This document shows, piece by piece, positions 36,888 through 64,000 of a stretch of 64,000 nt of DNA (its first letter is position 1; each line of letters opens with the position of its first letter). The position numbers were made by a program, and so were the translations under genes. The notes beneath the pieces are model-generated. The model ran no database searches. It was not told the origin of the DNA and saw nothing but the letters and a program-made list of their open reading frames with translations. Source of the stretch: Patescibacteria group bacterium (GTDB lineage: Bacteria > Patescibacteriota > Patescibacteriia > Patescibacteriales > UBA12465). Where the stretch lies: assembly GCA_041651095.1 (NCBI GenBank), contig JBAZJV010000001.1:147835-211834 (forward strand), written 5' to 3'.

Positions 36888-36900
36888 TTTACTCGGGATA

Positions 36901-39184: not shown

Positions 39185-39186
39185 AT

Positions 39187-39212: not shown

Positions 39213-39280
39213 ATAGATTCCGTTGCGGTCTTGAAGTATTTAGAATCAACTCTGACATTGCTATAATTATATCATCACTC

Positions 39281-39757: not shown

Positions 39758-39793
39758 AACGCTGGCAGCGAAGATGCCGGCTGCCTGCCGACG

Positions 39794-39816
39794 CCGCCCC
39801 TAGAGGCGGTTTTTTA
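39794..39816 (+). terminator. intrinsic terminator
   Basis: CCGCC-CCTAGA-GGCGG followed by TTTTTT. Confidence 0.65.
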
Positions 39817-39866
39817 ATTCCAAAAAATCCGGAAAAATGCTATGATTAAAGCATTAAAGACTGATA

Positions 39867-41300: not shown

Positions 41301-41310
41301 ACCGAATGTT

Positions 41311-41913: not shown

Positions 41914-41917
41914 CCAT

Positions 41918-42971: not shown

Positions 42972-42972
42972 T

Positions 42973-43350: not shown

Positions 43351-43384
43351 CCGATGATTAGCGGTTTTTTGCCCTTATTTTTCC

Positions 43385-43413
43385 TTGGCAAACTACTCGG
43401 GAAATGGTATAAT
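43385..43413 (+). promoter_or_regulatory. promoter TTGGCA-N17-TATAAT (TGg extended -10) giving a leaderless transcript
   Basis: TTGGCA 43385-43390 and TATAAT 43408-43413 preceded by TGG. The ATG at 43420 begins 7 nt after the -10 element. Confidence 0.6.
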
Positions 43414-43419
43414 TTGGAT

Positions 43420-43671
43420 ATGGAAAAATTTGCTAAAAATCGGCCATATTTGTTTTGGTCGACCACTAATTACCGGTCATTGTCACCGGCAGTGATTTTA
43501 GAAAATACCCTAAATTACGGAGATTTTTCAGATGTGCAGGAGTTGATGAGAGGGTTAGGGAAAAATCGGGCCGCTCTTATTTTTCGGCAACAACTGAAGA
43601 GCAAAAGGCATAATTATCAGCCGGCCGTAGCTAATTACTTTAAACTCTATTTCCGGAAATATGCACCTTGA
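43420..43671 (+). CDS. small hypothetical protein, upstream partner of the AbiEii-like gene (possible antitoxin)
   Basis: 83 aa from the ATG at 43420. A longer form from 43354 is possible but would contain the promoter. It overlaps the next gene by 11 nt. Confidence 0.5.
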   Translation: MEKFAKNRPYLFWSTTNYRSLSPAVILENTLNYGDFSDVQELMRGLGKNRAALIFRQQLKSKRHNYQPAVANYFKLYFRKYAP

Positions 43672-44272
43672 TATCTTGGCTGCCAAACAACAACGCCTGT
43701 TGCCCTGGCTGAAAGAATTCCGGCCAGATTTCGGTTTGGTCGGCGGCACGGCCTTGGCTTTGCAAATCGGCCACCGCCAGTCGATAGATTTTGATCTGTT
43801 CACTTGCCAAGAATTCGATAACTTAACTCTGCAACGCCGAATCTTCAAAAAAGAAAAAATCAGCAAAATTTTGGTTGACCAGCAAGGCGAGCTAACCGTT
43901 GTAGTCAAGGGCGTTAAAATCACTTTTTTATATTATCCTTTCAAGATCAGCTTTGCCGTGCCTTTGGCGAGCACTATCAAGATGGCGGACATCCTGACCA
44001 TCGCGGCTCTTAAAGCTTACGCCTTAGGGCGCCGGGCCAAGTGGAAAGACTATGTGGATCTATACGTGATTTTAAAAGATTTTTACACTCTACCGGAAAT
44101 AGTTAAAAAAGCCGAACAAATTTTTAAAAATAATTTTAACGAAAAAATCCTGCGAGCCCAGTTGGCTTATTTTAAAGATTTGGATTATTCGGAAAAAGTC
44201 ATTTATCAGCCTGGATACAAGATGGCCGACGCCAGCATCAAGAAATTTTTAACAGCCGTTAGTTTATCATAG
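43661..44272 (+). CDS. nucleotidyltransferase, AbiEii/DUF1814-like (type IV toxin-antitoxin toxin family)
   Basis: 203 aa. FGLVGGTALALQIGHRQSIDFDLFT matches the GGTAL....G.R.S.D.D signature as I recall it. Later AALKAYALGRRAKWKDYVDLY is also present. Confidence 0.55.
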   Translation: MHLDILAAKQQRLLPWLKEFRPDFGLVGGTALALQIGHRQSIDFDLFTCQEFDNLTLQRRIFKKEKISKILVDQQGELTVVVKGVKITFLYYPFKISFAVPLASTIKMADILTIAALKAYALGRRAKWKDYVDLYVILKDFYTLPEIVKKAEQIFKNNFNEKILRAQLAYFKDLDYSEKVIYQPGYKMADASIKKFLTAVSLS

Positions 44273-50200: not shown

Positions 50201-50597
50201 GAGCGGCACGACGACCAGTGCGATTTGGAACGCTAATATCGGCTATAATGTCGGTATCGGGACGACTAATCCGCAGGCCACCCTGCAAGTGGCTGGCGGT
50301 CTGTCATTGAACCGGACGACGGTAGCGGACGCTGACTATACGACCCAGTCTACGGATTACATCATCGGTTATACTACGCTCACCACAAATCGGACAGTTA
50401 CCCTGCCTAATGCTTTATGCACGCCGGGCCGTTTCTTCGTGGTCTTGGATGAAAGCGGCAGCGCTTCGGCCAGCAAGAAGATCATCATTGATCCGGAAGG
50501 CGCGACGACCATCGTCGGCCAACCTACTTTTACGCTCTCCGGCGCCTACAATTCTGTCTACGTTTTCTGTGGCAGTTCGGCTTGGTATGTGTTATAA
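44286..50597 (+). CDS. giant secreted/surface repeat protein, tail-fibre-like
   Basis: 2103 aa with an N-terminal signal/anchor (ILLFALLLSGGFLLF). It has more than 20 G-N-V-G-I-G-T-T-x-P-xxx-L-x-V motifs and 7 two-Cys modules ASGTVNGTGLCIGGDCKxSW. Confidence 0.85.
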   Translation: MPRFYSRKTGILLFALLLSGGFLLFSNAKNAQAYHATSSYNKTFNDTLTSQNWNDLFSDFVNTWLPVSLNGPVGIATGAPAAGLSVNGPVNATNLFTGGLFTTGNVGVGTTNPGSNLHIVGSLDASGTVNGTGLCIAGVCKTDWSGVGATSGWTINGTTVYKTDTNGNVGVGTTNPAATLNLERSNAAGAPSLRLSLSDSPASYRVDLKAQYDDVTSLALQQSGQNILTAGRSPSKTALYTFNGGGTSNERITILGSSGNVGIGTTNPVQKLAIANGRLLVDNYNTYSEGSIQNNLAEFTLRTTNGPNYSSVYSYQTIDSSNGGSNNAQANWLLAVNNATAGDYQLGGLSLYPANYWTASKRGLYVYSTNVPIKFATGIGAQSSKLYGADDANVKMTIDNNGRVGIGTTNPGNQLTVNGRGGFNNDQVTIGGTSGLAAERIYLNYDGANTLGRLNAISGVGLSFGSNGANDRLVITSGGNIGIGTTAPGSNLDVVGSINASGTVNGTGLCIGGDCKVSWPAIIAAGGGNLWSGTTTGAIWNANSGDVGIGTTAPGARIEIKGSGNTFATTNFRLANSDNTTIFTVQDHSVGKFTGQFQILGGTGTNQLYVQDGGAYIAGNVGIGTSTPTQQLAVGGNGNIWLAGSNPGIFLMDTPSADGYGYRIYNDGDSIVGNLVTNAGAGATQIFDFKYGNPSVYSFTGNTVRFGIGTSTPTANLEIYQYSSDADLLKLSSAGGSSGDLLTVRNSGNVGIMKSSPGANLDVVGSINASGTVNGTGLCIGGDCRTSWAAAGAYWTGYGSDIASNNSGNVGVGTTAPSQKLHVAGGAYITQRTGIGVTPGGHGSILSAQLDGSNGQRGVVVFNNTGDTDNDQQLFAGLNHSGNFTSWINGAGSAYFGGNVGIGTTAPSNRLHTVGFGSYPGNLSEIPQYSHIRFQPRSDQNGSLFIAGNSDSSTLIIQGALDGTTARAISLNPYGGNVGVGVMTPAAKLQVAGGQLYLSGKGSATGLTFTNHSIYQDANNILILDSSGNQNMAFMPGTGNIGIAKTNPSSNLDVVGSINASGTVNGTGLCIGGDCKVSWPAIIAAGGGNLWSGTTTGAIWNANSGDVGIGTTAPGARIEIKGSGNTFATTNFRLANSDNTTIFTVQDHSVGKFTGQFQILGGTGTNQLYVQDGGAYIAGNVGIGTSTPTQQLAVGGNGNIWLAGSNPGIFLMDTPSADGYGYRIYNDGDSIVGNLVTNAGAGATQIFDFKYGNPSVYSFTGNTVRFGIGTSTPTANLEIYQYSSDADLLKLSSAGGSSGDLLTVRNSGNVGIMKSSPGANLDVVGSINASGTVNGTGLCIGGDCRTSWAAAGAYWTGYGSDIASNNSGNVGVGTTAPSQKLHVAGGAYITQRTGIGVTPGGHGSILSAQLDGSNGQRGVVVFNNTGDTDNDQQLFAGLNHSGNFTSWINGAGSAYFGGNVGIGTTAPSNRLHTVGFGSYPGNLSEIPQYSHIRFQPRSDQNGSLFIAGNSDSSTLIIQGALDGTTARAISLNPYGGNVGVGVMTPAAKLQVAGGQLYLSGKGSATGLTFTNHSIYQDANNILILDSSGNQNMAFMPGTGNIGIAKTNPSSNLDVVGSINASGTVNGTGLCIGGDCKVSWPAIIAAGGGNLWSGTTTGAIWNANSGNVGIGTTNPLSKFEIYGGNLNIRNNDNGINVLGLGLATSDSGAPGGAYGTSFIVGNSSTGSGHPSSLAFYTESSGAVGERVRIDSIGNVGIGTTSPAGKLEVSGTAIINNTLTLNGAGSAIEQIWKGGTWYHIKANASNLFNIFEDNYETTRNIALVAGNVGVGTTAPSSKLQVGATTGSNFITLAGGVTGASYGIDWSFNNPGVNKYAQVMFSYDDRSTKGLQFNINNGYQMSFNRIDTVGTFQANLMTILSAGNVGIAKTNPGTTLDVTGGINASGTVNGTGLCIGGDCKVSWPSIVSAGGGNLWSGTTTSAIWNANIGYNVGIGTTNPQATLQVAGGLSLNRTTVADADYTTQSTDYIIGYTTLTTNRTVTLPNALCTPGRFFVVLDESGSASASKKIIIDPEGATTIVGQPTFTLSGAYNSVYVFCGSSAWYVL
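45903..49276 (+). repeat. perfect tandem duplication, period 1680 nt (560 codons), ~2.0 copies
   Basis: By line-by-line comparison, bases 45903-47596 are identical to 47583-49276. The flanking partial copy 45720-45902 is only ~80-90 percent similar to 47400-47582. Confidence 0.95.
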
Positions 50598-50645
50598 TAT
50601 AATAACAAGAGAGCGGAGGAAAACTCCGCTGCGGTTAGATATATT

Positions 50646-53600
50646 ATGAAGTTTAGAATAAAAAATCTCGGGAAGATTTTTACCCTGGTCTTTTTGGTTA
50701 TCCTGGGGGTTTTTTATTTCTCGGCCATCGCCCGCGCCGCTTTTATCACCTCCGGCGGTTCGCAGTGGACTGACGTTTCGGGCGGCATATATTATACCGG
50801 CAATATCGGGGTCGGAACGTCAACGCCAACCGGGCCGCTAGATGTTATGACTAGCGGTGCGGATGGTGGATTTAGAGTAAGGTATAATGGTAATGGAGCC
50901 GAATGGTTTAGTGTTGGCAATGGTGGTACCGGAGTTGTCAGATTTGGTGCTGCCGGAGGATATACTGATGTAGGCGGTGCCGGAAACTTAGGCGGTCGTA
51001 TGAACATTAGCTCTCTTAATACTGGTGGCTCCGTTCCGCTAGTTTTAACTGGAGTAACCAGCCAGACGGCTAATTTATTTGAAATTAATGATATTGGCGA
51101 TCAATCAGGAAACAAGTTTGTCGTCCAATTTGGCGGGAATGTCGGTGTTGCTAAGACCAACCCCGGAACCACTTTAGATATCGTCGGCGGCCTGAACGCC
51201 TCCGGCACCGTAAACGGTACCGGGCTCTGCATTAGCAGCGACTGCCGTACTTCCTGGGCGGCGGCGGGAGCGTATTGGACGGGGAACGGGAGTAATATTT
51301 ATAGCAATAATTCCGGGAATGTGGGAATCGGGACGACGACACCAAATTATAAATTATATGTAAATGGGATAACATACATTTCAGGAGATGTTTTAGGGGG
51401 TGGTTTTGTTACGGATAATGGTTTCTATGCAATGAATACTAAATATGGGTGGAGCGATTATTATAGTATCTATGCAAAGACTGGTATAAATGCTCAATTA
51501 AATAATACGACCCAAGGGCCATTTAATATTTGGTCATCACAATTGAATGTCCATTCGGGTTTGTATGTCTCGGGCAACGTCGGCATCGCCAAGACTAACC
51601 CCGGCACGACCCTGGATATCGTCGGCGGTATCAACGCTTCCGGCACCGTCAATGGCACCGGCCTCTGTATCGGCGGAGACTGTAAGACTACCTGGCCGAC
51701 CATAGTTCAGGCCGGTCTGCCTTCCGGCACGGCCGGACAGACCCTCTATAGTGACGGGACTCAATGGTTAACCAGTTCCGCGTTGATTAATAACGGCACG
51801 AATATCGGGATCGGGACGACGAATCCTGTTGAAAAATTATCCGTAAGCGGAAATATGTATATTACAGGAACGAGTTCATTGATAGGAAAAGTTGGAATTG
51901 GGACCAACTCTCCTGACCCAGTTAGAAAATTAACCATAAAAGCTGGAAGAGATGCACAAAATTATGGCGGATCTATAGCTTTTTATAATGATAATTATTC
52001 TTCCGGAAGAAATTTTTATATTGGTAATGTGTATGATGGAGTAAATGCAATGCGTTTTCAAGTTGGGCGGTATGATAATTCTACATATAATGACTTTTTT
52101 TCTATTACAGAATCTGGCAATGTCGGGATAGGGACGACGGCGCCCGTGGGCGCGCTAGACACAGTTTTAGGATCAGGAACATGGAGTAAATATACTGAGA
52201 TAGTATTAGCTCAAGAAAGTGATAACCCCTCCGTTAGAATGTATCGACCAGCCGGATCTGGGACATTAAGAACGCCCTGGTGGATTTCAATTGAAAATAG
52301 TGCTTTACAATTTAAGACTGGCAGTAATGCTGAATTAGGCAACGAAAGCGTTGCTTCAAAGTTAACAATATTGAATGGTGGCAATGTCGGCATCGCGAAG
52401 ACCAACCCCGGCACGACCCTGGATATTACCGGCGGCGTCAGCGCCTCCGGCACCGTAAACGGCACCGGCCTCTGCATTGCCGGCGACTGCCGCACTTCCT
52501 GGGCGGCAGCGGGGGCTTATTGGACGGGGAACGGTAACAACGTATATAGCAATAATTCCGGCAATGTCGGGATCGGGACGACCAACCCGGTCGGCAAGCT
52601 TGATGTCCGGCCGGCTGGCAATAACGGCAATGGTAAAATTTATGTCGGCGGCGATAATACTTATCCGCGCCTGTATATGGGCGGCGATAGTACCACCGTG
52701 GCCGGCGTATTCAACCGGACGCAGGGTAGCGCTACTATGTATTTCGGAGAATTTTCAGATACGGGCGGCTTTGAGATGCGCGGCACCGGCAACTATAATT
52801 TCGGCGCCGACCGCCTGTTCCTGTCATCCGGCGGCAATACCGGTATCGGCACGACCAATCCCTTATCCAAGCTGGACGTCTATAATGGCAATATCGGCGT
52901 CTCTAATAATGTCGCCTCCGGCGGCAATGCGAGCGGCCTCATTTTCTATCACACCGCCGGCTTGGGCAGCAATTGGTACTCCGGCCTGGTTCCTTATGTG
53001 ACCAGCAGCTATGATCGGGTCGGTTTGAAATTCTTGACCGCGAATTCGGGGGCGGCCACGGAAAAAATGGTCATTGCTCCGGATGGTAATGTGGGAATCG
53101 GGACGACGAATCCGCTTACTAAATTGCATATTTCCAGTGGAGATTTTTCGATTAATCGCGCCAGCACATCTACTTTTGCTAATTTAGGTTGGCAAACGGC
53201 GGGGGCGGCTAAATGGTGGTTAGGATTAAGAAACGACGGAACTGATCAATTATACCTATATGATCAGGCTGCCGGACAAGCTAGGGTTACGTTCAGTCAA
53301 AATGGCAACGTCGGAATTGGGACGACGAATCCAACACAGGCTAGATTGGTGAGCGCTGGAACTGCATCAGTCGGGCCGTATGTTGGATTGAATGATAATA
53401 ACGTCAAGATATTTGAGATAACTTATGGCGCGGGCCGCGATGGAGTATTAAAACTTTTTAAAAATGATACGACATTAAATGTCTTATTAAATTCCAATGG
53501 AAATAGTTATGTAAACTCTGGCAACGTCGGCATCGCCAAGACCGATCCCGGCACCACCCTAGATATTGTCGGCGGTTTGAGCGCCTCCGGCACGGTGAAC

Positions 53601-56045
53601 GGCACCGGTCTCTGTATTGCTGGCGATTGTAAAACCAGTTGGGAGGCGGTCGGCGGCGGCGGCTGGTTGCTGAATGGCATCGACACCTATAAGGCTGATA
53701 CGAGTGGGAATGTCGGGATTGGGACGACAAATCCTAATAATAAGCTAGAAGTAAACGGACAGATAGCTCAAAATGCTGCTAGTGGCGGCACTATTACTAG
53801 TTTTTCTTCTGATACACTTTTAAGAATGTGGGCCGATACTGGAAATAATTGGGGGGCAATTGAAGTAACTAATGCCGCTAATAACACAAAAAAGAATTTG
53901 GTATTAAATCCTTGGGGCGGCAACGTCGGGATTGGGACGACGAATCCGGGAGGTGCGAAGTTATTTGTAAATGATGGGATAACTCATCTCGGAGGGTATA
54001 CGGGAAGTGACATATTACAGATTCAACCGGGAGATGATAATAATCCGAGTTATGCGGCTATAGTGGTTGGAAATTCGACTTGGACAGGGTGGCCATTTGT
54101 TGTGAGGAAAAACGGAGACATCGGTGGTAATACAATATATTTATCAGGAAGTAGCAATAACTATTTTGCCGGCAACGTCGGGATTGGGACAACGAATCCG
54201 GGGGCAACTTTAGATGTAAATACATCAAACGCAATGCCATTTAGAATTAGAAGATCAGGAGCTCTAGGTGGTGGATGGATGGGTGCAAATAATGTGATGA
54301 GCGGATCAGTCTCGGATTTACTAATTGTACCTGAAAATGATGGAGTAGGCGCTGGCGGCATCGCTTTTTATTCAACAGCTGGAGCTACTGAAGCATTTGC
54401 TATGGGAATCAATTCTTCTGGCAACGTCGGGGTGGGGATGACAAATCCGACCGATCGGCTCCAAGTTGGTGGCACAGCAGATAATAAATTAAGTCTTAGT
54501 GATTTAAGATCCGGCAGAGCGATCGCAGTCGGGCAGAAGAATCAGATATCTTTCTACAACTACGCCGGCAGTGGCCCCCCTATTTCTACTACGACTATAG
54601 GGTCAATAGTGGAATTTACGCCCTCAGGAGTGGGCGGAAATACTGGTATATTTTTCGGAACTACTGATTATAGCCTTGGTTATGGTGAAAGGATGAGGAT
54701 TTCGTCTAGTGGCAATATCGGCATCATGAAGACCAACCCCGGCACTACCCTTGATGTCGTCGGCGGCATTACCGCCTCCGGCACGATTAACGGCACCAGC
54801 CTCTGTATCGCCGGCGATTGTAAAGCTAACTGGGCGGCGGTCGGCGGCGGCGGCTGGAGCTTGAATGGCATTAATACCTATAAGACGGATACGACCGGCA
54901 ACGTCGGCATCGGTACGACCGATCCCGGCGCTTATAAGTTGAATGTTGGCGGCGATATTTATGCTGCCGGCGCCTTGACGGTGACCGGCTCCATTACGGC
55001 TTCCGGCGGCAATAGCGGCAATTGGAATACGGCCTATTCGGAAAGGGCGCAATGGGACGGCGGTTCGACTAATTTGGTGGCGGCCACCGGTCGCACCTCT
55101 TTAGGCCTCGGTTCTTTAGCGACGCTCAATTCCATTAATAACTCCAACTGGTCCGGCACGCAGTTATCGGTCGCTAACGGCGGCACTGGCACGACCACTC
55201 TGACCGGCATCCTGAAAGGGAACGGTACCTCCAACTTTACGGCGCTGACCGGCACCAGCGGTTACGTCACCCGTTGGACTGATAATAATACTATAGGTAT
55301 CGGCACGCTGTATGATAATTCTACCAACGTCGGCATCGGCAAAACCAATCCCGGCGCGACTCTAGATGTAGTCGGCAGCATCAACTCTTCCGGCACGGTA
55401 AACGGCACCGGTTTGTGCATGGCCGGCGACTGCAAGACCAGCTGGGCCAGCGTCACCGGCCCCTGGACAGCGAATGGCACCCATATCTATAATAACAATT
55501 CCGGCAATGTCGGCATCGGTGCGACCAATCCGGCCGCTAAATTGGATGTGGCCGGCGTCGTTAATGCCACCGGCGCGTCGTTCACCGGCTCGGTCAACAT
55601 GAATAATAATAATATTACTAATATTAACAAGATTTATGTTGGCACGATCGACCCGTTGTATAAGATAAAAGGCATCAATTATGCTACCTATGCCGCCTCC
55701 GTAGCCGGTGGAGTCAAGGAAGAGTATGTCGGCCGGCTGGCCATTACCCGTAAAGCGTCGGCCAAGGAATATGAAGCAGCGATAGATTTCTCTAAAGCCG
55801 CCGAAGGCAGCGACCTCTGGCTCTGGCGCAAGATCGTTGATTTCAATGCCGATAACGTGGAGGTCATCGCCACCCCCTATGGTCGGGCCGCCCAGGTTTA
55901 TTATATAATAGAAGGAGAGCGGATAATTTTCCGCTCCGATCGGCCGGCCGAGATTTCATACCGTCTGACCGGCAAGCGTTTTGACTGGCGAGAATGGCCG
56001 ACGGTGTCGGAAGACCAGGCTTTACAGGGCAGAGAAGTGGATTAA
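50646..56045 (+). CDS. giant secreted/surface repeat protein, tail-fibre-like (second copy of the architecture)
   Basis: 1799 aa with an N-terminal anchor (IFTLVFLVILGVFYF). It has the same GNVGIGTTNP motif family, 6 two-Cys modules and an LSVANGGTGTTTLTG fibre-like string. Confidence 0.85.
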   Translation: MKFRIKNLGKIFTLVFLVILGVFYFSAIARAAFITSGGSQWTDVSGGIYYTGNIGVGTSTPTGPLDVMTSGADGGFRVRYNGNGAEWFSVGNGGTGVVRFGAAGGYTDVGGAGNLGGRMNISSLNTGGSVPLVLTGVTSQTANLFEINDIGDQSGNKFVVQFGGNVGVAKTNPGTTLDIVGGLNASGTVNGTGLCISSDCRTSWAAAGAYWTGNGSNIYSNNSGNVGIGTTTPNYKLYVNGITYISGDVLGGGFVTDNGFYAMNTKYGWSDYYSIYAKTGINAQLNNTTQGPFNIWSSQLNVHSGLYVSGNVGIAKTNPGTTLDIVGGINASGTVNGTGLCIGGDCKTTWPTIVQAGLPSGTAGQTLYSDGTQWLTSSALINNGTNIGIGTTNPVEKLSVSGNMYITGTSSLIGKVGIGTNSPDPVRKLTIKAGRDAQNYGGSIAFYNDNYSSGRNFYIGNVYDGVNAMRFQVGRYDNSTYNDFFSITESGNVGIGTTAPVGALDTVLGSGTWSKYTEIVLAQESDNPSVRMYRPAGSGTLRTPWWISIENSALQFKTGSNAELGNESVASKLTILNGGNVGIAKTNPGTTLDITGGVSASGTVNGTGLCIAGDCRTSWAAAGAYWTGNGNNVYSNNSGNVGIGTTNPVGKLDVRPAGNNGNGKIYVGGDNTYPRLYMGGDSTTVAGVFNRTQGSATMYFGEFSDTGGFEMRGTGNYNFGADRLFLSSGGNTGIGTTNPLSKLDVYNGNIGVSNNVASGGNASGLIFYHTAGLGSNWYSGLVPYVTSSYDRVGLKFLTANSGAATEKMVIAPDGNVGIGTTNPLTKLHISSGDFSINRASTSTFANLGWQTAGAAKWWLGLRNDGTDQLYLYDQAAGQARVTFSQNGNVGIGTTNPTQARLVSAGTASVGPYVGLNDNNVKIFEITYGAGRDGVLKLFKNDTTLNVLLNSNGNSYVNSGNVGIAKTDPGTTLDIVGGLSASGTVNGTGLCIAGDCKTSWEAVGGGGWLLNGIDTYKADTSGNVGIGTTNPNNKLEVNGQIAQNAASGGTITSFSSDTLLRMWADTGNNWGAIEVTNAANNTKKNLVLNPWGGNVGIGTTNPGGAKLFVNDGITHLGGYTGSDILQIQPGDDNNPSYAAIVVGNSTWTGWPFVVRKNGDIGGNTIYLSGSSNNYFAGNVGIGTTNPGATLDVNTSNAMPFRIRRSGALGGGWMGANNVMSGSVSDLLIVPENDGVGAGGIAFYSTAGATEAFAMGINSSGNVGVGMTNPTDRLQVGGTADNKLSLSDLRSGRAIAVGQKNQISFYNYAGSGPPISTTTIGSIVEFTPSGVGGNTGIFFGTTDYSLGYGERMRISSSGNIGIMKTNPGTTLDVVGGITASGTINGTSLCIAGDCKANWAAVGGGGWSLNGINTYKTDTTGNVGIGTTDPGAYKLNVGGDIYAAGALTVTGSITASGGNSGNWNTAYSERAQWDGGSTNLVAATGRTSLGLGSLATLNSINNSNWSGTQLSVANGGTGTTTLTGILKGNGTSNFTALTGTSGYVTRWTDNNTIGIGTLYDNSTNVGIGKTNPGATLDVVGSINSSGTVNGTGLCMAGDCKTSWASVTGPWTANGTHIYNNNSGNVGIGATNPAAKLDVAGVVNATGASFTGSVNMNNNNITNINKIYVGTIDPLYKIKGINYATYAASVAGGVKEEYVGRLAITRKASAKEYEAAIDFSKAAEGSDLWLWRKIVDFNADNVEVIATPYGRAAQVYYIIEGERIIFRSDRPAEISYRLTGKRFDWREWPTVSEDQALQGREVD

Positions 56046-56081: not shown

Positions 56082-56774
56082 ATGGACAACAAACCTATGG
56101 ACAACAAGCCAGTGGGCGGCGCCAAGAAGATCTGGATCCTCTTGGGGGTGCTGGTAGTCATCGTGATTATCATCATTGTGGCTGCTATGCAGGGGAAAAA
56201 GCCCGCCAATCAGGGAACTAGTCAAGAGCCGCAGACGAGCGGCAACGAAGTCGAGACGACCGGTGCCGAGAAGACTCCGGCCGGCGAAGAAGGCACGACG
56301 CCGGTGCAGAACCTGGAAGACAATAAAGTCTACAGCCTGGATGACGCCAAGGCTCAGATTCCTGGCGCCAGCCTGGTTACCGCCGGCGAGCAGAAGGTCG
56401 TAACATCGGAAGGCAAGGCCGCTCAGAACGATGCTATCCCGAACAGTCCGGCTGCGCCGAAACCGGTTTTGGTCGCCAAAGATCAGCTGCCGGCAGCTGC
56501 CGTCAAGCTGGAAGTCGGTAACGGCAAGATTACGCCCGCCTCGTTTACGGTCACTGCCGGCCAAGTCGTGAATCTGGCGGTTTCTTCCGCCGATAATCAG
56601 GTCCACGTCTTCATCTTCACCAATTCCGCGGTCGGCGCCATCGCCATGGGCGTCGGACCGGGCGAGACCAAGGCGATTACCTTCAATGCGCCGGCAGCCG
56701 GCAGCTATGATTTCCGCTGCGACGTTCCCGGCCATAAGGAAAAGGGCGAAGTCGGCAAGATGATCGTCAAGTAA
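56082..56774 (+). CDS. membrane-anchored cupredoxin (type-1 copper) domain protein
   Basis: 230 aa with a TM (ILLGVLVVIVIIIIVAA) and a low-complexity linker. The C-terminal domain carries candidate ligands H (NQVHVF) and FRCDVPGHKEKGEVGKM. Confidence 0.65.
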   Translation: MDNKPMDNKPVGGAKKIWILLGVLVVIVIIIIVAAMQGKKPANQGTSQEPQTSGNEVETTGAEKTPAGEEGTTPVQNLEDNKVYSLDDAKAQIPGASLVTAGEQKVVTSEGKAAQNDAIPNSPAAPKPVLVAKDQLPAAAVKLEVGNGKITPASFTVTAGQVVNLAVSSADNQVHVFIFTNSAVGAIAMGVGPGETKAITFNAPAAGSYDFRCDVPGHKEKGEVGKMIVK

Positions 56775-56909: not shown

Positions 56910-58349
56910 ATGCCGCATTTTTCTTCCGGGGCGCGTAAACTGTTTTTTATCTTCGTCCTGGTCATCATCTTCGTTATACCCGTTTCTCTGAGCGTGCTGG
57001 ACTGTGTCCCGCCGGATGCCGCGATTTCTCCGGCTGACACTGTGGCTACTGGCACGCCCGTCGTTACGGTTACTTCTTCGTTGCCCGTTGTTTCGTCTGG
57101 CGCCTCTTTATCGCCGGCCGCTGTTCAGCCGGCCAAGCCAGCCGGCGGATCCCCGATTGACTCCCTGGCCGCGGCGCAGCAATTCGGCTCCTTCGCTTAT
57201 AGCCAGGTTAATTTTCATTTATCAGGCAGTGCTATTCGTTTTGACAACGAGACGCGCGGCCTGTCTTTTTATCCGGATTACGCCATGAGCGGGGCCGGCA
57301 GCCAATTGCTCGGCACCGCCGTACAAAAATCCCTACAAGACGCGGCTGCTAACGATTTTAACGGTCCATACGCGGACCGCCGCTGTCTGGGTAATGATTG
57401 CCTGGAACAGAAAGACTGGGAATTATTTTATAACGACCGGTATTTGGATTTGCCGCTTAGCAGCAGTTCTTTAACCGCCGTTTCCATCGCCGGCCTGCAG
57501 AAAATCTGGCTGGTCGGGTTGACTTTCCGAGCGGGCGAAGGATATCGGGGCCGAGCCTTTCGTTTTGACGGCCGGGAATTTACGGAAATCGTGACGCCGT
57601 CGCCGATCACTTCCTTATACCCCGGTCTATTTGGTTTCGGCGGCGAGGACGATGATTTTTTGGTCTTATATAGCGCGGATCAGGGCACGGCTTACCGCAT
57701 CCGCGGCGGCCGGTTTACCGAAGCGATCAATATCAGTCGCTTCTTCAATATTCGCGGTCCGTTGGCCGCTTTCAAGGCGGAAGCGATCAAGGTGGTAAAC
57801 GGCAGCGATACCGTCTGGTATATTTATAGCTCCACTTTGTCCCGGCCGCGGCTCTTGAAACTCTGGCAGAACCGGACCGCGGAAATTGTCGGCAGCCTGT
57901 CTTTCGATAATTTTCCGGGCAGCCGGGCCAAGGCCGCCCTATTTCGTAAACTGGACGTGAGCACCGGGCAGATCCGGCTGGCTGCCCTGGTCCGGGATTA
58001 CCGGGGCGGGGAAGATTGGCAGATCTTTAGCGACCGTGGCTTTAAAAATACCAAGCCGGTTTCGCTTGCCACGCCGGCGCTGGGGAAACTGTCCGGCGGC
58101 GCCGCTTACCGGATAATTTCTATCGCGAACAGTGCTTTGGATATTGATCCACCCAGCCAGGATAAGGTGAAATGGCTATTTTCAACCGATAATAAAAATT
58201 GGCGAACCGTGCCTTTGGGCCGCAACTTGGAGTTTAAGACGGCGACGGCCAACTCCTATTTTTTCCGGCTAGATTTCCCGGCCAGCGGCGATAAGTTCTT
58301 TTCCCCTTTTATTAGTGCGATTTTCTTTGATTATTATTTCCAAAAGTGA
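56910..58349 (+). CDS. secreted/membrane-anchored hypothetical protein
   Basis: 479 aa with an N-terminal TM (LFFIFVLVIIFVIPVSL) and a Ser/Pro/Val-rich linker. No family recognised. Confidence 0.65.
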   Translation: MPHFSSGARKLFFIFVLVIIFVIPVSLSVLDCVPPDAAISPADTVATGTPVVTVTSSLPVVSSGASLSPAAVQPAKPAGGSPIDSLAAAQQFGSFAYSQVNFHLSGSAIRFDNETRGLSFYPDYAMSGAGSQLLGTAVQKSLQDAAANDFNGPYADRRCLGNDCLEQKDWELFYNDRYLDLPLSSSSLTAVSIAGLQKIWLVGLTFRAGEGYRGRAFRFDGREFTEIVTPSPITSLYPGLFGFGGEDDDFLVLYSADQGTAYRIRGGRFTEAINISRFFNIRGPLAAFKAEAIKVVNGSDTVWYIYSSTLSRPRLLKLWQNRTAEIVGSLSFDNFPGSRAKAALFRKLDVSTGQIRLAALVRDYRGGEDWQIFSDRGFKNTKPVSLATPALGKLSGGAAYRIISIANSALDIDPPSQDKVKWLFSTDNKNWRTVPLGRNLEFKTATANSYFFRLDFPASGDKFFSPFISAIFFDYYFQK

Positions 58350-58424: not shown

Positions 58425-58922
58425 ATGAGCAAAAAGACTTACCTTTGGCTGGCCGTGGCGGTCATTGTCGTCATCGCGGCCATCTACGTTCTCGTCTCCT
58501 TGAATTCTCAAGGTTTGAACGGAGAATACGCCGATCAGGGCCAGGCCCAGACCCTGAATAACAACCTCATTCCGACCGGCAATGAAGCGGCCGCGCTCAA
58601 ACAGGGTGATGTCATTCCGGGCTATGCCACGGACAGCAATTCCATCGAGCAGGCGCCGATAATCATCACGGCCGAAGCCAAATCTTTCAGCCCGACCGCG
58701 GTGACGGCCAAGCTGAATTCCAAGATTACCTTCATCCTGGAGGCGACCGACGACGCGACCCACTCGTTGTCTTTTTCCAGCAAGCAATTCGGCTACATCC
58801 AGGACGTCAATTTCTCCAAGGCTAGCGGTCGCAAGTCAATAACCTTCCCGGGCAATATCGCCGGATCTTTTAATTTTTACATCGATCAGGAGAGCAATAA
58901 GGGAACCCTGGTGGTTAAATAG
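58425..58922 (+). CDS. membrane-anchored cupredoxin-like protein lacking the Cys/His/Met copper ligands
   Basis: 165 aa with the same TM-linker-beta-domain layout as 56082..56774. The C-terminal GSFNFYIDQESNKGTLVV replaces the C..H..M ligand region. Confidence 0.55.
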   Translation: MSKKTYLWLAVAVIVVIAAIYVLVSLNSQGLNGEYADQGQAQTLNNNLIPTGNEAAALKQGDVIPGYATDSNSIEQAPIIITAEAKSFSPTAVTAKLNSKITFILEATDDATHSLSFSSKQFGYIQDVNFSKASGRKSITFPGNIAGSFNFYIDQESNKGTLVVK

Positions 58923-58955: not shown

Positions 58956-61900
58956 ATGAATTTTAAAAAACTAAAACTAAGCAAATCCTTGGTGTTTGCT
59001 TCAGTTTTTATTGCCGTTGCCGTCGCGGCCGCTTTCTTGTCGCTGCGGCCGGTCGGGCCGCCAGCCTTAGCTGCCAGCGACTGCCGGCTTAACGTGACGG
59101 CCAGCGGCAATATTTCCGTCAGTCCGGTTTCCGGCAGTAATTGTACTATTACGGCCGGCACCATCGAAGGCGTTGACAGCGGCGACCTGATTATCCCCGC
59201 TAACAAGACGATTACCATCGGCTCGGGCGCCCAACTGGTTATGGATCCGAACCATCCTTTGGATAAGACGGCCCTTGGCACCAAGATCATCATCGAGAAG
59301 CCGAGCGCGGCGGGCGGCGCTATCGTCAAGGGCTATATCTGCGCGGTTGACGCCGATAATGACGGCTACGCCGATAAAGTCGGGAGTAACAGTGAGCCGA
59401 TCTATCAGTATTCAGCTTCGCCAGATTGTCCGGCCAACACAGTTCGCAAAGCAAGCCTAGGCAATAACATTACCCAATTGGACTGCGTCTCCGGCACCGG
59501 GCAGAAGTTGAACGCGACCTGCTCGCCCAAGCTCGGCAATTGGGAAGATATAGGCGGCTGCGGCGATTATGCCCCCGGCATCCAGTACCAAAAGATGGAT
59601 TGGACCCGGACGACTTTGACCGCAGCCAACTGCGGTGGTAATGACTGCGTCCTGTCCGGTACGGACTATGATTATACTACGACTTGCGAATGTAACCCCG
59701 GTGCCACTACCACCTATTCTTGCGGTACTGGCAACTGTACCCGTTCCGGCACCAAGACTTGCGGTAGCGACCGCAAATGGGGCGCCGGCAATTGTGTGGC
59801 CGGCACACCCGGCACCTGCCAATCTTTGGGCTATGAATGTGGCCAGGATTTAAGCGACGGCTGTGGCAACTATAACCTGAATTGCGGCAATGATAATAGT
59901 TCTACCAGTTGTACGGTCGGCGTTGGCGCCTGTCAAAACACCGGTACCAAGTCCCGAACCTGCTCCGGCGGCGTTTGGGGCACTTATGGCGCTTGTTCGG
60001 CCACGGCCGGCATCCCGAGCACGGAAATTTGCAACGGCGATGATGATGATTGTGATGGGTCAACTGACGCTATTGACTCCGATTTGCTTCCCCAGACTCA
60101 GAGCTGCACGGTCGGCGTTGGCAATTGTGCCCGCACCGGCACTCAAAGTCGGACTTGTTTCAATGGTGCCTGGCCGACTTGGGGCGCTTGTTCCGCCACG
60201 CCCGGCACGCCGGACACCTGCAGTTCCTTAGGTTATGTTTGCGGTAGCAGCGTATCGGACGGTTGCGGCGGCACTCTGAATTGCGGTACTGACACTTCTT
60301 CGACCAGCTGCACGGTTGGCGAGGGGGATTGCCAACGTACTGGTACTAAGACTAGGTCCTGCTCCGGCGGCGCCTGGGGCGCCTATGGCGCCTGTTCAGC
60401 TACGGCCGGGGCACCGACCAAGACTTGTGCGACGGCGGTAGAGGACGGAGCCTTTTGCGGCACTCCGCCAAATGGTTGTGGTGGCACATTAAGTTGCGGT
60501 TCCTGTGGTACCGGTTATACATGTTCTAACTATAAATGTGTTTTTGATGGTGCTAACTTCACAACCGGTTATACAGACGTTGATAAAGATGGATATGGCA
60601 GCGGCAGCTATGGTATTTGGGCAAATAGTTCTTCCTATAACGTCGTTTCTAACGATTCCGACTGCGATGACAGCAATGCCAGCATCACGCCCGGTTCTTA
60701 CGCCACCTGTGATTCTAACGGCGACGGAGCGGCTTGCGGCTATAAACACTGTTCGGCCGGTTCCTGGACTTCTTGCCAAGATGACGATTCTGCTACTTAT
60801 TATCGCGACGCCGATGGTGATGGAGCTGGCGATCCTAGCGTGTCGACCACCGCTTGCCAGTCTAGCTGGGGTCCACCCGTCTGCCATTCAGAGCCGGCGA
60901 TTTGTCCGAGCACTTGGTGTAATTCTTCCTCTAGCGGATATTATATAACTTGTAGCTGTTTCCAGATAGTTTGTCCGCCGCAAGCGTCACCTGTCAAAGA
61001 ATTTATTTCTTATGGTGGCTATACCTATGTCCGTACATCCAATGATTGCAATGACTCCAATTCCAACATAACTTCTAGTTCCAGCAGTACTTGCGACTCT
61101 AACGGTGATGGCTCATATTGCGGCACCAAAACCTGCAGTAATGGGCTCTGGAGTTCCTGTACCGGAGATCATTCTTTGCAAGCGTATTATTATGACTTTG
61201 ATTATGATGGACTTGGTAATCCATCTCAAACCATATATGCTTGCACCGATGTTCACATTGGATATCCTAGCTCCACTGATGGTACTGACTGCAATGATAA
61301 CGACGCAAATATTAAGGCATATGTTTTTAATACCTATTCTTGTTCAGTCGGCACTGGCGCCTGCCAACGCAGTGGAACCTATGACCATTATTGTTTAGGC
61401 GGTGTCTGGGGGTCTAATAATTGTAGAGCCACAGCCGGTTCACCAAGTTCGGAAACCTGCAACGGTGTTGACGATGATTGCGACGGCTCAGTTGACGAAG
61501 GCTTGAGCCAGAGCACGAGCTGTTCGGCTGGCACCGGCGCTTGTTATCGCACTGGTACTATGAGTAGAACCTGTGCCGGAGACGGTTCTTGGAATCCCTG
61601 GGGCGCCTGTTCAGCCACGGCCGGCTCGCCCAGCTCTGAATCTTGCAATGGCGTTGATGACGATTGCGACGGGTCAACGGATGAAGGCTTGAGCCAGAGC
61701 ACGAGCTGTACGGTCGGCACCGGCTATTGTGCTAATACCGGCACCCAGAGCAGATCCTGCTCCGGCGGTTCCTGGAGTTCCTGGAGTTCCTGTTCGGCTT
61801 CGCCACTTTCACCGCCATCTTGTAGCTATTTCGGCTATGTCTGCGGCAGCAGCATGTCAAACGGTTGCGGCGGCACCATGAATTGCGGTTCAAACTCCCA

Positions 61901-62387
61901 GTCGCAGAGCTGTTCAGTCGGTACTGGCGCCTGTTACCGGACCGGCACCCAGAGCAGATCCTGCTCCGGCGGTTCCTGGGGTTCCTGGGGGTCCTGTTCG
62001 GCCACGGCCGGCTCGCCCAGTTCGGAAAGTTGTAATGGCACTGACGATGATTGCGACGGCTCGACCGATGAAGGAACTAATTATAATCAGTCTTGCAATA
62101 ACGGACAATCCGGCAGCTGTTACCGGACCGGTACTTATTATATGGCCTGTAACAACGGATCATATATCCAGACCACTGGCTGTTCCGCTCCTTATGTCGC
62201 GCCCGGCACCTGTTCTTCCTTGGGGTATTCCTGCGGCAGCAGCATGTCCAACGGCTGCGGCGGGACGATAAATTGCGGCGCCAATTCTCGCACCAGATCC
62301 TGCACGGTCGGCGGCAGCCCGGGCTATTATTATGACACTTGCTCCGGCGGCAGCTGGTCTAACGGAACGACGTGTTATAAGTCATAA
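58956..62387 (+). CDS. giant Cys-rich secreted protein with MopE-type CNGxDDDCDG motifs
   Basis: 1143 aa with a signal peptide (LVFASVFIAVAVAAAFL). It has 4 CNG(D/V/T)DDDCDGS(T/V)D motifs, ~8 C(T/S)VGxGxCxRTGTxSRxCSGGxWGxxGxCSAT modules and 4-5 SLGYxCGxxxSxGCGGTxNCG modules. Confidence 0.85.
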   Translation: MNFKKLKLSKSLVFASVFIAVAVAAAFLSLRPVGPPALAASDCRLNVTASGNISVSPVSGSNCTITAGTIEGVDSGDLIIPANKTITIGSGAQLVMDPNHPLDKTALGTKIIIEKPSAAGGAIVKGYICAVDADNDGYADKVGSNSEPIYQYSASPDCPANTVRKASLGNNITQLDCVSGTGQKLNATCSPKLGNWEDIGGCGDYAPGIQYQKMDWTRTTLTAANCGGNDCVLSGTDYDYTTTCECNPGATTTYSCGTGNCTRSGTKTCGSDRKWGAGNCVAGTPGTCQSLGYECGQDLSDGCGNYNLNCGNDNSSTSCTVGVGACQNTGTKSRTCSGGVWGTYGACSATAGIPSTEICNGDDDDCDGSTDAIDSDLLPQTQSCTVGVGNCARTGTQSRTCFNGAWPTWGACSATPGTPDTCSSLGYVCGSSVSDGCGGTLNCGTDTSSTSCTVGEGDCQRTGTKTRSCSGGAWGAYGACSATAGAPTKTCATAVEDGAFCGTPPNGCGGTLSCGSCGTGYTCSNYKCVFDGANFTTGYTDVDKDGYGSGSYGIWANSSSYNVVSNDSDCDDSNASITPGSYATCDSNGDGAACGYKHCSAGSWTSCQDDDSATYYRDADGDGAGDPSVSTTACQSSWGPPVCHSEPAICPSTWCNSSSSGYYITCSCFQIVCPPQASPVKEFISYGGYTYVRTSNDCNDSNSNITSSSSSTCDSNGDGSYCGTKTCSNGLWSSCTGDHSLQAYYYDFDYDGLGNPSQTIYACTDVHIGYPSSTDGTDCNDNDANIKAYVFNTYSCSVGTGACQRSGTYDHYCLGGVWGSNNCRATAGSPSSETCNGVDDDCDGSVDEGLSQSTSCSAGTGACYRTGTMSRTCAGDGSWNPWGACSATAGSPSSESCNGVDDDCDGSTDEGLSQSTSCTVGTGYCANTGTQSRSCSGGSWSSWSSCSASPLSPPSCSYFGYVCGSSMSNGCGGTMNCGSNSQSQSCSVGTGACYRTGTQSRSCSGGSWGSWGSCSATAGSPSSESCNGTDDDCDGSTDEGTNYNQSCNNGQSGSCYRTGTYYMACNNGSYIQTTGCSAPYVAPGTCSSLGYSCGSSMSNGCGGTINCGANSRTRSCTVGGSPGYYYDTCSGGSWSNGTTCYKS

Positions 62388-62414
62388 GATAAGAAATTAC
62401 TGTATAGATAGCAG

Positions 62415-62442
62415 AAAGCGCTGAAGAGCGCTTTTTGCTTTT
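62415..62442 (+). terminator. intrinsic terminator
   Basis: AAAGCGCT-GAAG-AGCGCTTT followed by TTGCTTTT. Confidence 0.7.
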
Positions 62443-62488
62443 ATTAGCCTAATATTATATTACAATTTGACAAAAATTAGTAAAAATA

Positions 62489-62517
62489 TTGACAAAAATC
62501 AAAATGTGTAGTATAAT
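62489..62517 (+). promoter_or_regulatory. consensus sigma70 promoter TTGACA-N17-TATAAT
   Basis: TTGACA 62489-62494, a 17-nt spacer, then TATAAT 62512-62517. A second TTGACA lies 22 nt upstream. Confidence 0.75.
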
Positions 62518-62608
62518 ATAATCAATTAATGAAGTGAAATGGGCACTAGTTAAAGCCCTTTAAAAATTGAATAAAAAACAAAAAACATATATCCGTAAGG
62601 AGGATACA

Positions 62609-64000
62609 ATGAAAAAGTTAAATTTAATGTTGTTATGGTTTTTACTTGTTCCGCTGTTCATAAACGGACAAGTAAAGAATCAGATGGGCTATCCTCTGAT
62701 GAATTTAGAGGTTAGCTCAAGGGAAGCGCCGGTAGAAAACTATTACCAGCAACCCCAGAAATTATACAAGACAACGATTACTTCTGTTGATCACTCGAAT
62801 TTAGTTACAGTGCGTGATCAGTACCCCGGGAATACTTGTGTCCCATTTTCAGTAACATCCGGTCTGGAGTTTGCTCATAATATGAAGCACGGTAGCAAGC
62901 AAGAGCCGCTTTTTTCCCCAAGTTTCATTTATAATTTTATAAATGCTAATAATTTGGGCAGTGGCAAATCCAGCGCATTTGGTTTTCTGCAACGGCAAGG
63001 GTGTGCCAAGGAGAGCTTATTTCCTTATATGGCCAATGATTGGAAGACTTTACCTAATTTTCGGGTAATGGAATCCGCTTTGCCATATCGTATTGACAGT
63101 TGGAGCTGGTGGTATATGGGCGATACGTTGCCTCGTCCCGATCCAGGTTCTTATCCGATAGCGGTAGCCGGTCCTCTTGGCCTTAATATTGCTAAGCAAG
63201 TTTTAGCATCGGGTAACCCAGTGGTTATGGACTGGGGCATCACTGAAGGCTTTAGCGAAAAAATGCACTCAGATAATTGGGTGTATAGCTACGCTAGATT
63301 CGGCCAGATGCCATTTATCGGATCGCACTCACTATTAATGGTTGGATATGATGATAATAAAGATACCCCTGACGGTCCTGGGGCCATTCGGTGCCTAAAT
63401 TCCTGGGGAAACAATTTCGACAACGGATTTGTCTGGGTAAGTTATAAGGCGATTGCCATGCAACAGTATAATGGTAGGTTTTATAGCTTTAAATTAAGGA
63501 ATAATTACCAACCGAAATTGTTTGTAGAGCTGTCTTTGGACAGCCTAAGTTTAGGCGAATATGCTTGGACATATAGCGGTCTTAAAGTTAATGGCAATAC
63601 CTATACCCAATCATCTCTCAGCTTCCAAGGGGCAATTAATTATGTTTATCCTAAGGAATTGGTTATTGATCTTACTGATTTATTCAATGGCGATATTGCT
63701 TCCGCCACATTCTTTTTACAGATGAAGGACAAACAGGGCAGCGCGCTTAATCCAGTCATAAAATCATTACATTTCGTTGATACTAGTCGTAATATAGATT
63801 ACTATGTTACGGCTAATACTGCTGTCAGCGGCAACACTTTTTATGCCGAATGGGATTTTAGGGCCACTGATTTTAGTTTGTCGGTTCAGCCGGCCGATTC
63901 CGTCGAAGTTTATGAGCAAAAACCACTATCGGTCAAAGTCGATGCTACTCCGGAAAAACAATTACATTACAGTCTGATTACAGTCCCTGTAATTGACGGT
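62609..64000 (+). CDS. secreted papain-family (C1) cysteine peptidase, 3'-truncated by the window end
   Basis: This ORF is absent from the supplied track because it has no stop in the window. I translated it by hand: ATG at 62609 after a TAAGGAGG RBS, open for 464 codons to position 64000. Signal peptide MKKLNLMLLWFLLVPLFINGQ. Candidate catalytic strings: DQYPGNTCVPFS (Cys), GSHSLLMVGYDD (His) and LNSWGNNFDNGFVWVSY (Asn). Confidence 0.8.
   Translation, partial: MKKLNLMLLWFLLVPLFINGQVKNQMGYPLMNLEVSSREAPVENYYQQPQKLYKTTITSVDHSNLVTVRDQYPGNTCVPFSVTSGLEFAHNMKHGSKQEPLFSPSFIYNFINANNLGSGKSSAFGFLQRQGCAKESLFPYMANDWKTLPNFRVMESALPYRIDSWSWWYMGDTLPRPDPGSYPIAVAGPLGLNIAKQVLASGNPVVMDWGITEGFSEKMHSDNWVYSYARFGQMPFIGSHSLLMVGYDDNKDTPDGPGAIRCLNSWGNNFDNGFVWVSYKAIAMQQYNGRFYSFKLRNNYQPKLFVELSLDSLSLGEYAWTYSGLKVNGNTYTQSSLSFQGAINYVYPKELVIDLTDLFNGDIASATFFLQMKDKQGSALNPVIKSLHFVDTSRNIDYYVTANTAVSGNTFYAEWDFRATDFSLSVQPADSVEVYEQKPLSVKVDATPEKQLHYSLITVPVIDG

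Follow-up and report, generated by a model that had tools for sequence, protein, structure and literature searches.

A cysteine-rich MopE-related repeat protein encoded in a conserved cluster of exported-protein genes in Patescibacteria

The window analysed here is a 64,000-nucleotide (nt) stretch of the genome of a Patescibacteria group bacterium (NCBI GenBank assembly GCA_041651095.1, contig JBAZJV010000001.1, positions 147,835 to 211,834 of the forward strand). Near its end lies a gene for a Cys-rich protein of 1143 amino acids (aa), and an identical protein is already held by NCBI as 'MAG: MopE-related protein [Patescibacteria group bacterium]', MAG denoting a metagenome-assembled genome. 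The protein is a clear member of the repeat class defined by the Pfam family PF11617, its gene is under purifying selection, and the order of the genes around it is conserved in three Patescibacteria genomes. An initial annotation, made from the sequence alone, had described it as a secreted protein of MopE-type modules in a surface-protein neighbourhood.

Modules and family membership of the MopE-related protein

Cys accounts for 100 of the 1143 residues (8.7%), and Ser, Gly and Thr are also abundant (15.0, 14.3 and 10.6%), with only 6 His and 8 Met. The N-terminus has a Lys-rich region, a hydrophobic core (hydropathy of 2.65 at aa 12) and the string ALA|AS directly before the first Cys. Most relatives of the N-terminal domain likewise show an AxA-type signal-peptide end, then a Cys, before the domain. 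From the hydrophobic segment and the AxA pattern, we infer that the protein is exported via a signal peptide.

Three Cys-rich module types recur, as the initial annotation had proposed and in about the numbers it gave. By regular-expression scans, module A (C[TS][VA]GxGxC...C[SR]A[TSP]) has seven canonical copies, at aa 319, 384, 452, 796, 856, 918 and 986, and three degenerate ones, near aa 256-287, 1047 and 1117. Module B (CNGxDDDCDG) has four copies, at aa 359, 835, 897 and 1026. Module C (CxSLGYxCG...GCGGTxNCG) has four copies, at aa 288, 422, 956 and 1086, and a variant at aa 491-530. The calcium-binding-like DxDxDG strings that it also noted are present at four sites beyond module B (aa 132, 541, 618 and 747). 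On the other hand, describing the protein as made almost entirely of such modules was an overstatement, as about 47% of the residues belong to the three types, a share that rises to about 55% when linkers are counted (blocks aa 256-530 and 796-1143), and the N-terminal (aa ~40-255) and central (aa 535-795) regions differ in kind from the module blocks. The features of the gene are as follows.

58956-62387, plus strand: whole gene for the exported, Cys-rich MopE-related repeat protein (1143 aa), recognized from an open reading frame with an ATG start, PF11617, the NCBI identity and the dN/dS ratio given below
58956-59072, plus strand: predicted Sec signal peptide, aa 1-39, with Lys-rich N-region, hydrophobic core aa 12-30 and ALA|AS
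59076-59330, plus strand: N-terminal head domain, aa 41-125, consensus GV.nGNLTI..g.TLTI..G..LV.NPG (23 relatives; alignment A2; structure prediction)
59331-59720, plus strand: first long MopE-type unit (YICAVDADNDGYAD...LDC, aa 126-178), then a Cys-containing region, aa 179-255, common to close relatives
59721-60545, plus strand: proximal module block, aa 256-530, A'-C-A-B-A-C-A-C' (motif positions and supermodule alignment)
59817-59888, plus strand: module C copy 1 (CQSLGYECGQDLSDGCGNYNLNCG)
60024-60074, plus strand: module B copy 1 (EICNGDDDDCDGSTDAI), the second half of PF11617 and a putative DxDxDGxxD calcium loop
60219-60290, plus strand: module C copy 2, replaced by a B-like module in the orthologue P0002
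60426-60545, plus strand: module C variant (CATAVEDGAFCGTPPNGCGGTLSCGSCGTGYTCSNYKCV)
60558-61340, plus strand: central divergent region, aa 535-795, three long MopE-type units (Y.D.D.DG ... DC[DN]D....I) with CDSNGDG..C inserts
61341-62384, plus strand: distal module block, aa 796-1143, A-B-A-B-A-C-A-B-A'-C-A'' (motifs, alignment, selection and structure prediction)
61452-61502, plus strand: module B copy 2 (ETCNGVDDDCDGSVDEG), the best Pfam stretch (aa 833-848)
61497-61523, plus strand: 27-nt exact repeat, copy 1, encoding the EGLSQSTSC linker after module B copy 2
61638-61688, plus strand: module B copy 3 (ESCNGVDDDCDGSTDEG), block mean confidence 96-97 and no regular secondary structure in the model
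61683-61709, plus strand: 27-nt exact repeat, copy 2, the linker after module B copy 3; the flanking codons differ at synonymous sites
61821-61892, plus strand: module C copy 3, block mean confidence ~73-80
62025-62075, plus strand: module B copy 4 (ESCNGTDDDCDGSTDEG)
62211-62282, plus strand: module C copy 4
62410-62439, plus strand: intrinsic-terminator-like hairpin, 13-bp stem and T run, directly 3' of the stop codon

The modules are combined in higher-order units. An A-B-A-C supermodule is present three times (aa 316-451, 853-985 and 983-1116), and A and B together form one unit of ~58 aa, CxVGxGxCxRxGxxxC...CxAxxGxPxxExCNGxDDDCDGxxDEG. The slot at aa 422-445 holds module C here but a B-like module in P0002, the full-length orthologue (58% identity) from a second Patescibacteria MAG, so B and C can replace each other as linkers between A hairpins. 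An N-terminal domain (aa 41-262) stands apart from the modules; in alignment A2, columns D92, D94, D96, Y98 and D136, which belong to the first long MopE-type unit, are almost invariant. In the central region, the DxDxDG strings at aa 541, 618 and 747 are accompanied by DCDD or DCND strings at about aa 569, 697 and 778.

Structures were predicted with AlphaFold2 (AF2), and confidence is given as the predicted local distance difference test score (pLDDT), also in the list above. The A-B-A-C supermodule at aa 853-985, modelled with a 50-sequence alignment of homologous units, was predicted with high confidence (mean pLDDT 91.6, predicted template modelling score 0.65). In this model, A is a beta-hairpin, B is a loop placed with confidence and lacking regular secondary structure, and C, predicted less confidently, is a small helix plus a hairpin. 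For the N-terminal model, block mean pLDDT is 77-94 over residues 1-100 (aa 41-140) and 53-93 over the next 40, and the prediction is poor after ~135-140. A regular run of 4-residue strands in the N-terminal model suggests that the head is a small solenoid-like sheet stack. By Foldseek, the A-B-A-C model found no match at E<1 in PDB or BFVD, and the N-terminal model none at E<1 in PDB; small disulfide domains are hard for Foldseek, so these null results are no proof of a new fold. PDB sequences were searched with phmmer and hmmsearch, using the whole protein (phmmer, E≤1), a 151-aa fragment and the A-B unit profile A1 (E≤10), and returned chance matches only (NTPDase and CD200 receptors).

At the level of Pfam, the link to MopE-type motifs holds. 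PF11617 (Cu-binding_MopE, 'putative metal-binding motif') matches with 53.5 bits (E = 2.8e-14) in five stretches, against a gathering cutoff of 27 bits, and the best stretch (aa 833-848) covers profile positions 15-30, to which module B corresponds. Besides PF11617, no Pfam and no NCBIfam family matches the protein at E≤1. The initial annotation had added that a routine place in a well-described family would take away the novelty, and this is largely what was found, down to the NCBI name.

PF11617 is carried by all but one (P0093) of the 120 homologues listed, and the A+B unit has 857 domain matches in them. Besides P0002, the 118 other relatives listed align with no more than about a quarter of the query. 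Those labelled with an organism are mostly Myxococcales, Deltaproteobacteria or Bradymonadia. Judged by these matches, A+B is a standard building block of hundreds of PF11617 proteins in Myxococcota, Bacteroidota and others. The long MopE-type units were found by a pattern scan of GTDB species genomes in many Bacteroidota and Myxococcota, in two Methanosarcinales MAGs and in two further Patescibacteria/Parcubacteria MAGs.

The lineage-restricted parts appear to be the N-terminal head domain and module C only. When 1.84 billion representative proteins were scanned exhaustively with HMMER, just 23 relatives of the N-terminal domain came up at E≤1e-3, and the only one with an organism name is from Patescibacteria. 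A word-indexed search with the N-terminal 216 aa returned no match, not even the query's own copy, and the index seems to miss this region. Module C was seen in three proteins only: the query, P0002 and a further relative, P0122. A homologue search with the module C alignment gave no match, the motif being too short for significance, so the restriction to three loci rests on regular-expression scans of the 120 homologues and 80 loci.

Other repeat families were considered and rejected. The thrombospondin type 3 repeat (PF02412) gives no match at E≤1, only the 9-residue DxDxDGxxD core being common to both. The teneurin C-rich domain is defined by ExxCxDxxDxDxDxxxDCxxxDCC...C, with six Cys (1-3, 2-5, 4-6) and three Ca2+; the query has no CC pair and no PDB sequence match, and the likeness is confined to the core (DNDGDGLTD versus DDDCDGSTD). 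For the Myxococcus cysteine-rich repeat (TIGR02232/PF13948), no NCBIfam family was found at E≤1 and PF13948 was absent from the Pfam matches. EGF-like and laminin-EGF domains have six Cys (1-3, 2-4, 5-6), but module A has four, and no EGF-type Pfam family matched at E≤1. The cysteine-knot label of the initial annotation, which would call for three disulfides with one passing through the ring made by the other two, was set aside as well, having gained no support; that Foldseek gave no PDB match at E<1 is weak evidence on domains so small.

Selection, duplication history and gene neighbourhood

The gene was compared with that of P0002. The proportion of synonymous differences (pS) is 0.69, near saturation, and the ratio of nonsynonymous to synonymous rates (dN/dS) is 0.16 overall, showing purifying selection. 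For the C-terminal 158 aa (aa 986-1143), dN/dS falls to 0.04 with pS still 0.64, which indicates constraint on the protein rather than recent exchange. Cys is conserved at 93 of 100 positions. In 50-aa windows, identity is 58-78% over aa 101-250 and 14-54% in the centre (aa 535-795), which is rich in indels and most divergent, and the flanks of the central region are 58-96% identical.

The initial annotation had pointed to near-identical adjacent modules and a recent internal duplication. A 27-nt string does occur exactly twice, at 61497 and 61683 (0 expected in shuffles), but the 158-nt copies around it are only 76% identical. Each of the four A-B units has its positional orthologue in P0002, and within-gene copies are 66-76% identical in nucleotide sequence, in the same range as orthologous pairs (60-77%). 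Because positional orthologues coexist with near-saturated synonymous sites, the duplications predate the split from the P0002 genome. The duplication is thus not recent, and the 27-nt identical patch is at most a small conversion tract.

The MopE-related gene is the last of six same-strand genes for exported proteins, all six having an N-terminal hydrophobic segment. In three Patescibacteria genomes, the order is giant, giant, cupredoxin with the H/C/H/M ligands, a protein of ~480-520 aa without known family, ligand-less cupredoxin, and MopE-related protein with head domain. At the loci L001/L005, the same order comes with a MopE-related protein 58% identical and neighbours 38-76% identical; at L079/L080, it comes with an AbiE pair inserted, a MopE-related protein 41% identical and neighbours 26-58% identical. 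The neighbourhood of exported giant proteins and cupredoxins noted at the outset is therefore borne out, and conserved. The neighbouring genes are as follows.

44286-50597, plus strand: cluster gene 1, exported giant protein of 2103 aa; the best tblastn segment of its L001 counterpart is 51% identical
50646-56045, plus strand: cluster gene 2, 1799-aa exported giant protein
56082-56774, plus strand: cluster gene 3, 230-aa N-terminally anchored cupredoxin, H...C-x4-H-x8-M (PF13473, PF00127), ligands kept in three orthologues
56910-58349, plus strand: cluster gene 4, exported protein of 479 aa that matches no family (identity 59% to L001, 39% to L079)
58425-58922, plus strand: cluster gene 5, 165-aa cupredoxin-like protein (PF13473; alignment A4)
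62609-64000, plus strand: downstream neighbour, papain-like exported protein (weak PF00112) truncated by the window end, 53% identical to the L001 gene that follows the orthologue there

The gene 3 cupredoxin has weak matches to plastocyanin, CopI and rusticyanin models, and from its type-1 ligand set it is likely a blue-copper protein, a type unexpected in a supposedly fermentative small-genome bacterium. The gene 5 product and its orthologues have no Cys, no second His and no Met, a single His being left, so they have no type-1 copper site. It looks like a copper-free paralogue kept beside the MopE-related gene.

The papain-like gene, preceded by a perfect TTGACA-17-TATAAT promoter (62489-62517), is kept in both L001/L005 and L079/L080. 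The gene after the L001 orthologue encodes a 701-aa He_PIG/Por_Secre_tail protein, and Por_Secre_tail, a sorting domain of type IX secretion, would be odd in a Patescibacterium.

An origin by horizontal transfer from a Myxococcota-like lineage, which the initial annotation had considered, is not demonstrated. The guanine-plus-cytosine (GC) content of the gene is 0.54, matching that of its cluster neighbours (0.50-0.59), and so gives no hint of a recent transfer. The closest A-B relatives, which share the Trp-containing variant, are on metagenome contigs and one Euryarchaeota MAG fragment; from such matches, no donor lineage can be named for the A-B units.

Several other features of the window were observed. 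The two giant genes (44286-56045) share repeats, a 143-nt unit occurring 13 times across both. In giant 1, 1680 nt are duplicated in tandem, and over 247 nt the two copies are 100% identical (46508-46754 and 48188-48434); this duplication is recent, unlike the copies in the MopE-related gene. Directly upstream of the cluster is a type IV pilus locus (31209-43350) with PilM, PilB, PilC and at least five pilin-like genes, broken up by FemAB, YbeY and an exported Ig-like protein of 477 aa. Between the pilus locus and the giant genes (43354-44272), an AbiEii toxin gene with a GC content of 0.43, versus ~0.52 around it, has a small open reading frame upstream. A related AbiEii pair lies inside the L079 cluster (L079 3466-4924), and the differing positions suggest a mobile toxin-antitoxin module. 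GC content dips to 0.32-0.42 at 1-4000, 14001-16000 and 62001-64000, being 0.45-0.58 elsewhere in the window. The first of these stretches holds a DUF3644 gene and unannotated open reading frames, and the low-GC stretches may be islands of foreign DNA.

Metal binding and possible function

The family name and the initial annotation both raise MopE-like metal binding, so the motif was compared with MopE itself. The high-affinity Cu(I) site of MopE consists of two His and a kynurenine in a beta-sandwich common to MopE and CorA (PMC3912023). In MopE* (2vov_A), residues 1-24 are GLDTLDRDGDGSTADADCNDFAPT and residues 35-43 are DGVDSNCDG, together the PF11617 pattern. The electron density shows nothing of the first 46 residues of MopE*, and a form without the first 24 loses only a weak retention on a Cu(II) column, the high-affinity Cu(I) site being elsewhere (PMC3423442). 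CaCl2, moreover, protects and stabilises MopE* (PMC3423442). Neither 2vov nor CorA was returned by whole-protein phmmer or by the A-B profile against PDB sequences, a library that includes 2vov_A. The protein was thus rejected as a MopE/CorA homologue, as it bears no similarity to the beta-sandwich with the two-His and kynurenine Cu(I) site and the structural Ca2+ site. Copper binding of the MopE kind through the motif is not upheld, since the motif belongs to the disordered N-terminus of MopE* and the copper domain is absent here.

A different match is offered by calcium loops. PF11617 has been described as non-specific beyond the putative metal site (PMC6189053), and its consensus can be aligned to the core conserved in the C-rich domain of teneurin (PMC3278476). 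In its structure, determined at 1.5 Å, this teneurin domain contains three Ca2+, two of them coordinated in thrombospondin type 3 fashion (PMC9058538). Module B (D-D-D-C-D-G-S-T-D) and four other strings of the query fit the D-x-D-x-D-G-x-x-D loop. Because the motif lies outside the MopE Cu(I) site, has a Ca2+-binding match in teneurin and stands in a protein with few His and Met, calcium loops are favoured over copper sites. Most likely, the Asp-rich loops are stabilised by calcium, and copper binding by them is unlikely.

We conceived that the protein could be a Sec-exported, elongated structural or adhesive rod outside the cell, with ~20 small modules in series that would be cross-linked by disulfides and stabilised by calcium. 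Module A would be a four-Cys beta-hairpin. Module B would be an Asp-rich loop whose D-x-D-x-D-G-x-x-D core coordinates Ca2+ in the manner of thrombospondin type 3 repeats and of the C-rich domain of teneurin, and module C would be a lineage-specific four-Cys linker that may take a B slot. A beta-rich, lineage-restricted head would stand at the N-terminus of the rod. The C-terminal 158 aa, as the most constrained part, would be the likeliest site for docking a partner. Such a rod would probably contribute to the surface apparatus by which episymbionts contact other cells or surfaces. We lean, if only somewhat, towards this account of an exported, disulfide-braced and Ca2+-stabilised rod or adhesin belonging to the episymbiont surface apparatus.

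Several results weigh against it. First, no thrombospondin or teneurin PDB chain was matched by the full protein or the A-B profile, nor was TSP_3, so the calcium analogy rests on a 9-residue motif. Neither the A-B-A-C nor the N-terminal model matches a solved fold. Second, no sortase motif, lipobox or C-terminal anchor was found in the protein, and with no retention signal its attachment to the surface is an assumption. Third, no convincing disulfide oxidase was found. DsbA, DsbB and VKOR gave no Pfam match among the open reading frames scanned in the window. A 113-aa open reading frame (25508-25849, minus strand) with an N-terminal transmembrane helix, a CPHC motif and sub-threshold glutaredoxin/YruB similarity is a weak candidate for an exported thiol-disulfide oxidoreductase. 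A DsbA/Thioredoxin_4-family gene at L079 (18445-19155), ~9 kb downstream of the L079 orthologue, has SPYS replacing CxxC. Fourth, the conserved pairing with cupredoxin genes is left unexplained by a purely structural role. Finally, to our knowledge, MopE alone has been studied experimentally among the PF11617 repeat proteins.

The fast centre leads to another account, in which the protein is a variable surface antigen or specificity determinant. Its conserved ends would serve as anchors, and the central region (aa 535-795), together with B/C swapping, would diversify recognition or evasion of phage or host. The many indels and low identity of the centre between better conserved flanks fit this account, as does the slot that is C here and B-like in the orthologue, and strain variation of Cys-rich exported proteins has been noted in Peribacteria (PMC4736985). 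However, with a single close orthologue and saturated synonymous sites, positive selection is inseparable from relaxed constraint, and the surroundings of the gene showed neither a diversity-generating element nor a recombination cassette. We regard such a role as unlikely.

The cupredoxin genes that adjoin the MopE-related gene in three genomes, the larger one keeping its H/C/H/M ligand set, suggest instead a part in copper handling. The motifs would capture extracellular Cu(II) and pass it to the anchored cupredoxin encoded three genes upstream, or would buffer copper. The family is named after MopE, and MopE* is retained on the Cu(II) column only if its first 24 residues (GLDTLDRDGDGSTADADCNDFAPT) are present (PMC3423442). 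Nonetheless, the MopE/CorA Cu(I)-site domain is absent here, His and Met are few, and Cys is conserved in an even, module-wise pattern typical of disulfides. Besides, the directly adjacent cupredoxin-like gene lacks copper ligands, the PF11617 motif is non-specific beyond the putative metal site (PMC6189053), and the same motif binds Ca2+ in teneurin (PMC9058538). Copper handling by the protein is quite improbable on these grounds.

More speculatively, the cluster as a whole might form a Patescibacteria-specific extracellular machine, comprising the two giants, both cupredoxins, the 479-aa protein, the rod and possibly the papain-like neighbour, in which the rod gathers copper or calcium or docks a copper protein away from the cell. 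If true, this would connect type IV pilus-linked attachment with redox or metal chemistry outside the cell, in an organism that otherwise passes for purely fermentative, but we consider it a long shot.

Barely credible, and largely refuted already, is that the gene is a passenger recently acquired from Myxococcota-like bacteria without an integrated role, or an artefact of prediction in a repetitive GC-rich stretch: most PF11617-rich relatives are indeed from Myxococcota, Deltaproteobacteria or Bacteroidota, but the gene matches its neighbours in GC content, holds the same position in three Patescibacteria genomes, is constrained in dN/dS and Cys, and has an N-terminal domain found in few relatives, the only organism-named one from Patescibacteria.

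Current views are not overturned by these results, as the protein was already annotated and similar Cys-rich exported proteins have been reported in the candidate phyla radiation (CPR). What is new is modest, namely the lineage-restricted head domain, module C, and the conserved partnership with two cupredoxin-fold and two giant proteins. Predatory and surface-associated bacteria are rich in PF11617 repeat proteins, and the function of none of these proteins is known. A small-genome episymbiont that keeps one such protein under strong purifying selection in a fixed cluster offers a simpler setting for studying the repeat function. The family name 'Cu-binding' is misleading for such proteins, whose motif lies outside the MopE copper site and resembles a calcium loop. 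CPR biology also gains one well-defined component of a poorly understood surface apparatus, beside type IV pilus genes.

Comparison with known systems

MopE of Methylococcus capsulatus and CorA of Methylomicrobium album (PDB 2vov) are surface copper-binding proteins that have only the short Asp/Cys motif in common with the protein. The present host, in contrast, is not a methanotroph, the motif is present in multiple copies and the Cu(I)-site domain is missing.

The teneurin C-rich domain and thrombospondin type 3 repeats, which are eukaryotic and bind Ca2+, have the same D-x-D-x-D-G-x-x-D core with Cys flanks. Their loop and module B alike lack regular secondary structure and lie between small disulfide modules of an extracellular adhesion protein, as the query is proposed to be. 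On the other hand, there is no match beyond the motif, the CC pair is lacking here, and Ca2+ binding by the query is putative.

A 2016 study of CPR Peribacteria described large exported Cys-rich proteins with clustered genes and weak likeness to the Myxococcus repeat, and proposed a role in attachment (PMC4736985). They resemble the query in having a CPR host, a signal peptide, ~7% Cys and more than 1000 aa (PMC4736985). The comparison is one of description, and PF11617 was not reported in them. The view that a Cys-dense protein is unusual for a reduced genome is weakened by them, as such proteins were already on record in the CPR. Our literature search found nothing joining MopE to Patescibacteria, or 'putative metal-binding motif' to Myxococc*.

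The closest known counterparts are the PF11617 repeat proteins of Myxococcota, Bradymonadia, Bacteroidota and others, named 'MopE-related protein' or 'putative metal-binding motif-containing protein' by the Prokaryotic Genome Annotation Pipeline (PGAP). They have the same A+B unit of ~58 aa and the same long Y.D.DGDGY...DCxDxxxxIxPG units, and are likewise exported, very long and Cys-rich. They differ in carrying up to 22 B motifs, as compared with four here, and in lacking module C, seen only at three Patescibacteria-type loci. The protein described here, on its part, has a lineage-restricted head domain, belongs to a host with a small CPR genome, and is encoded in a fixed cluster with cupredoxins and giant proteins.

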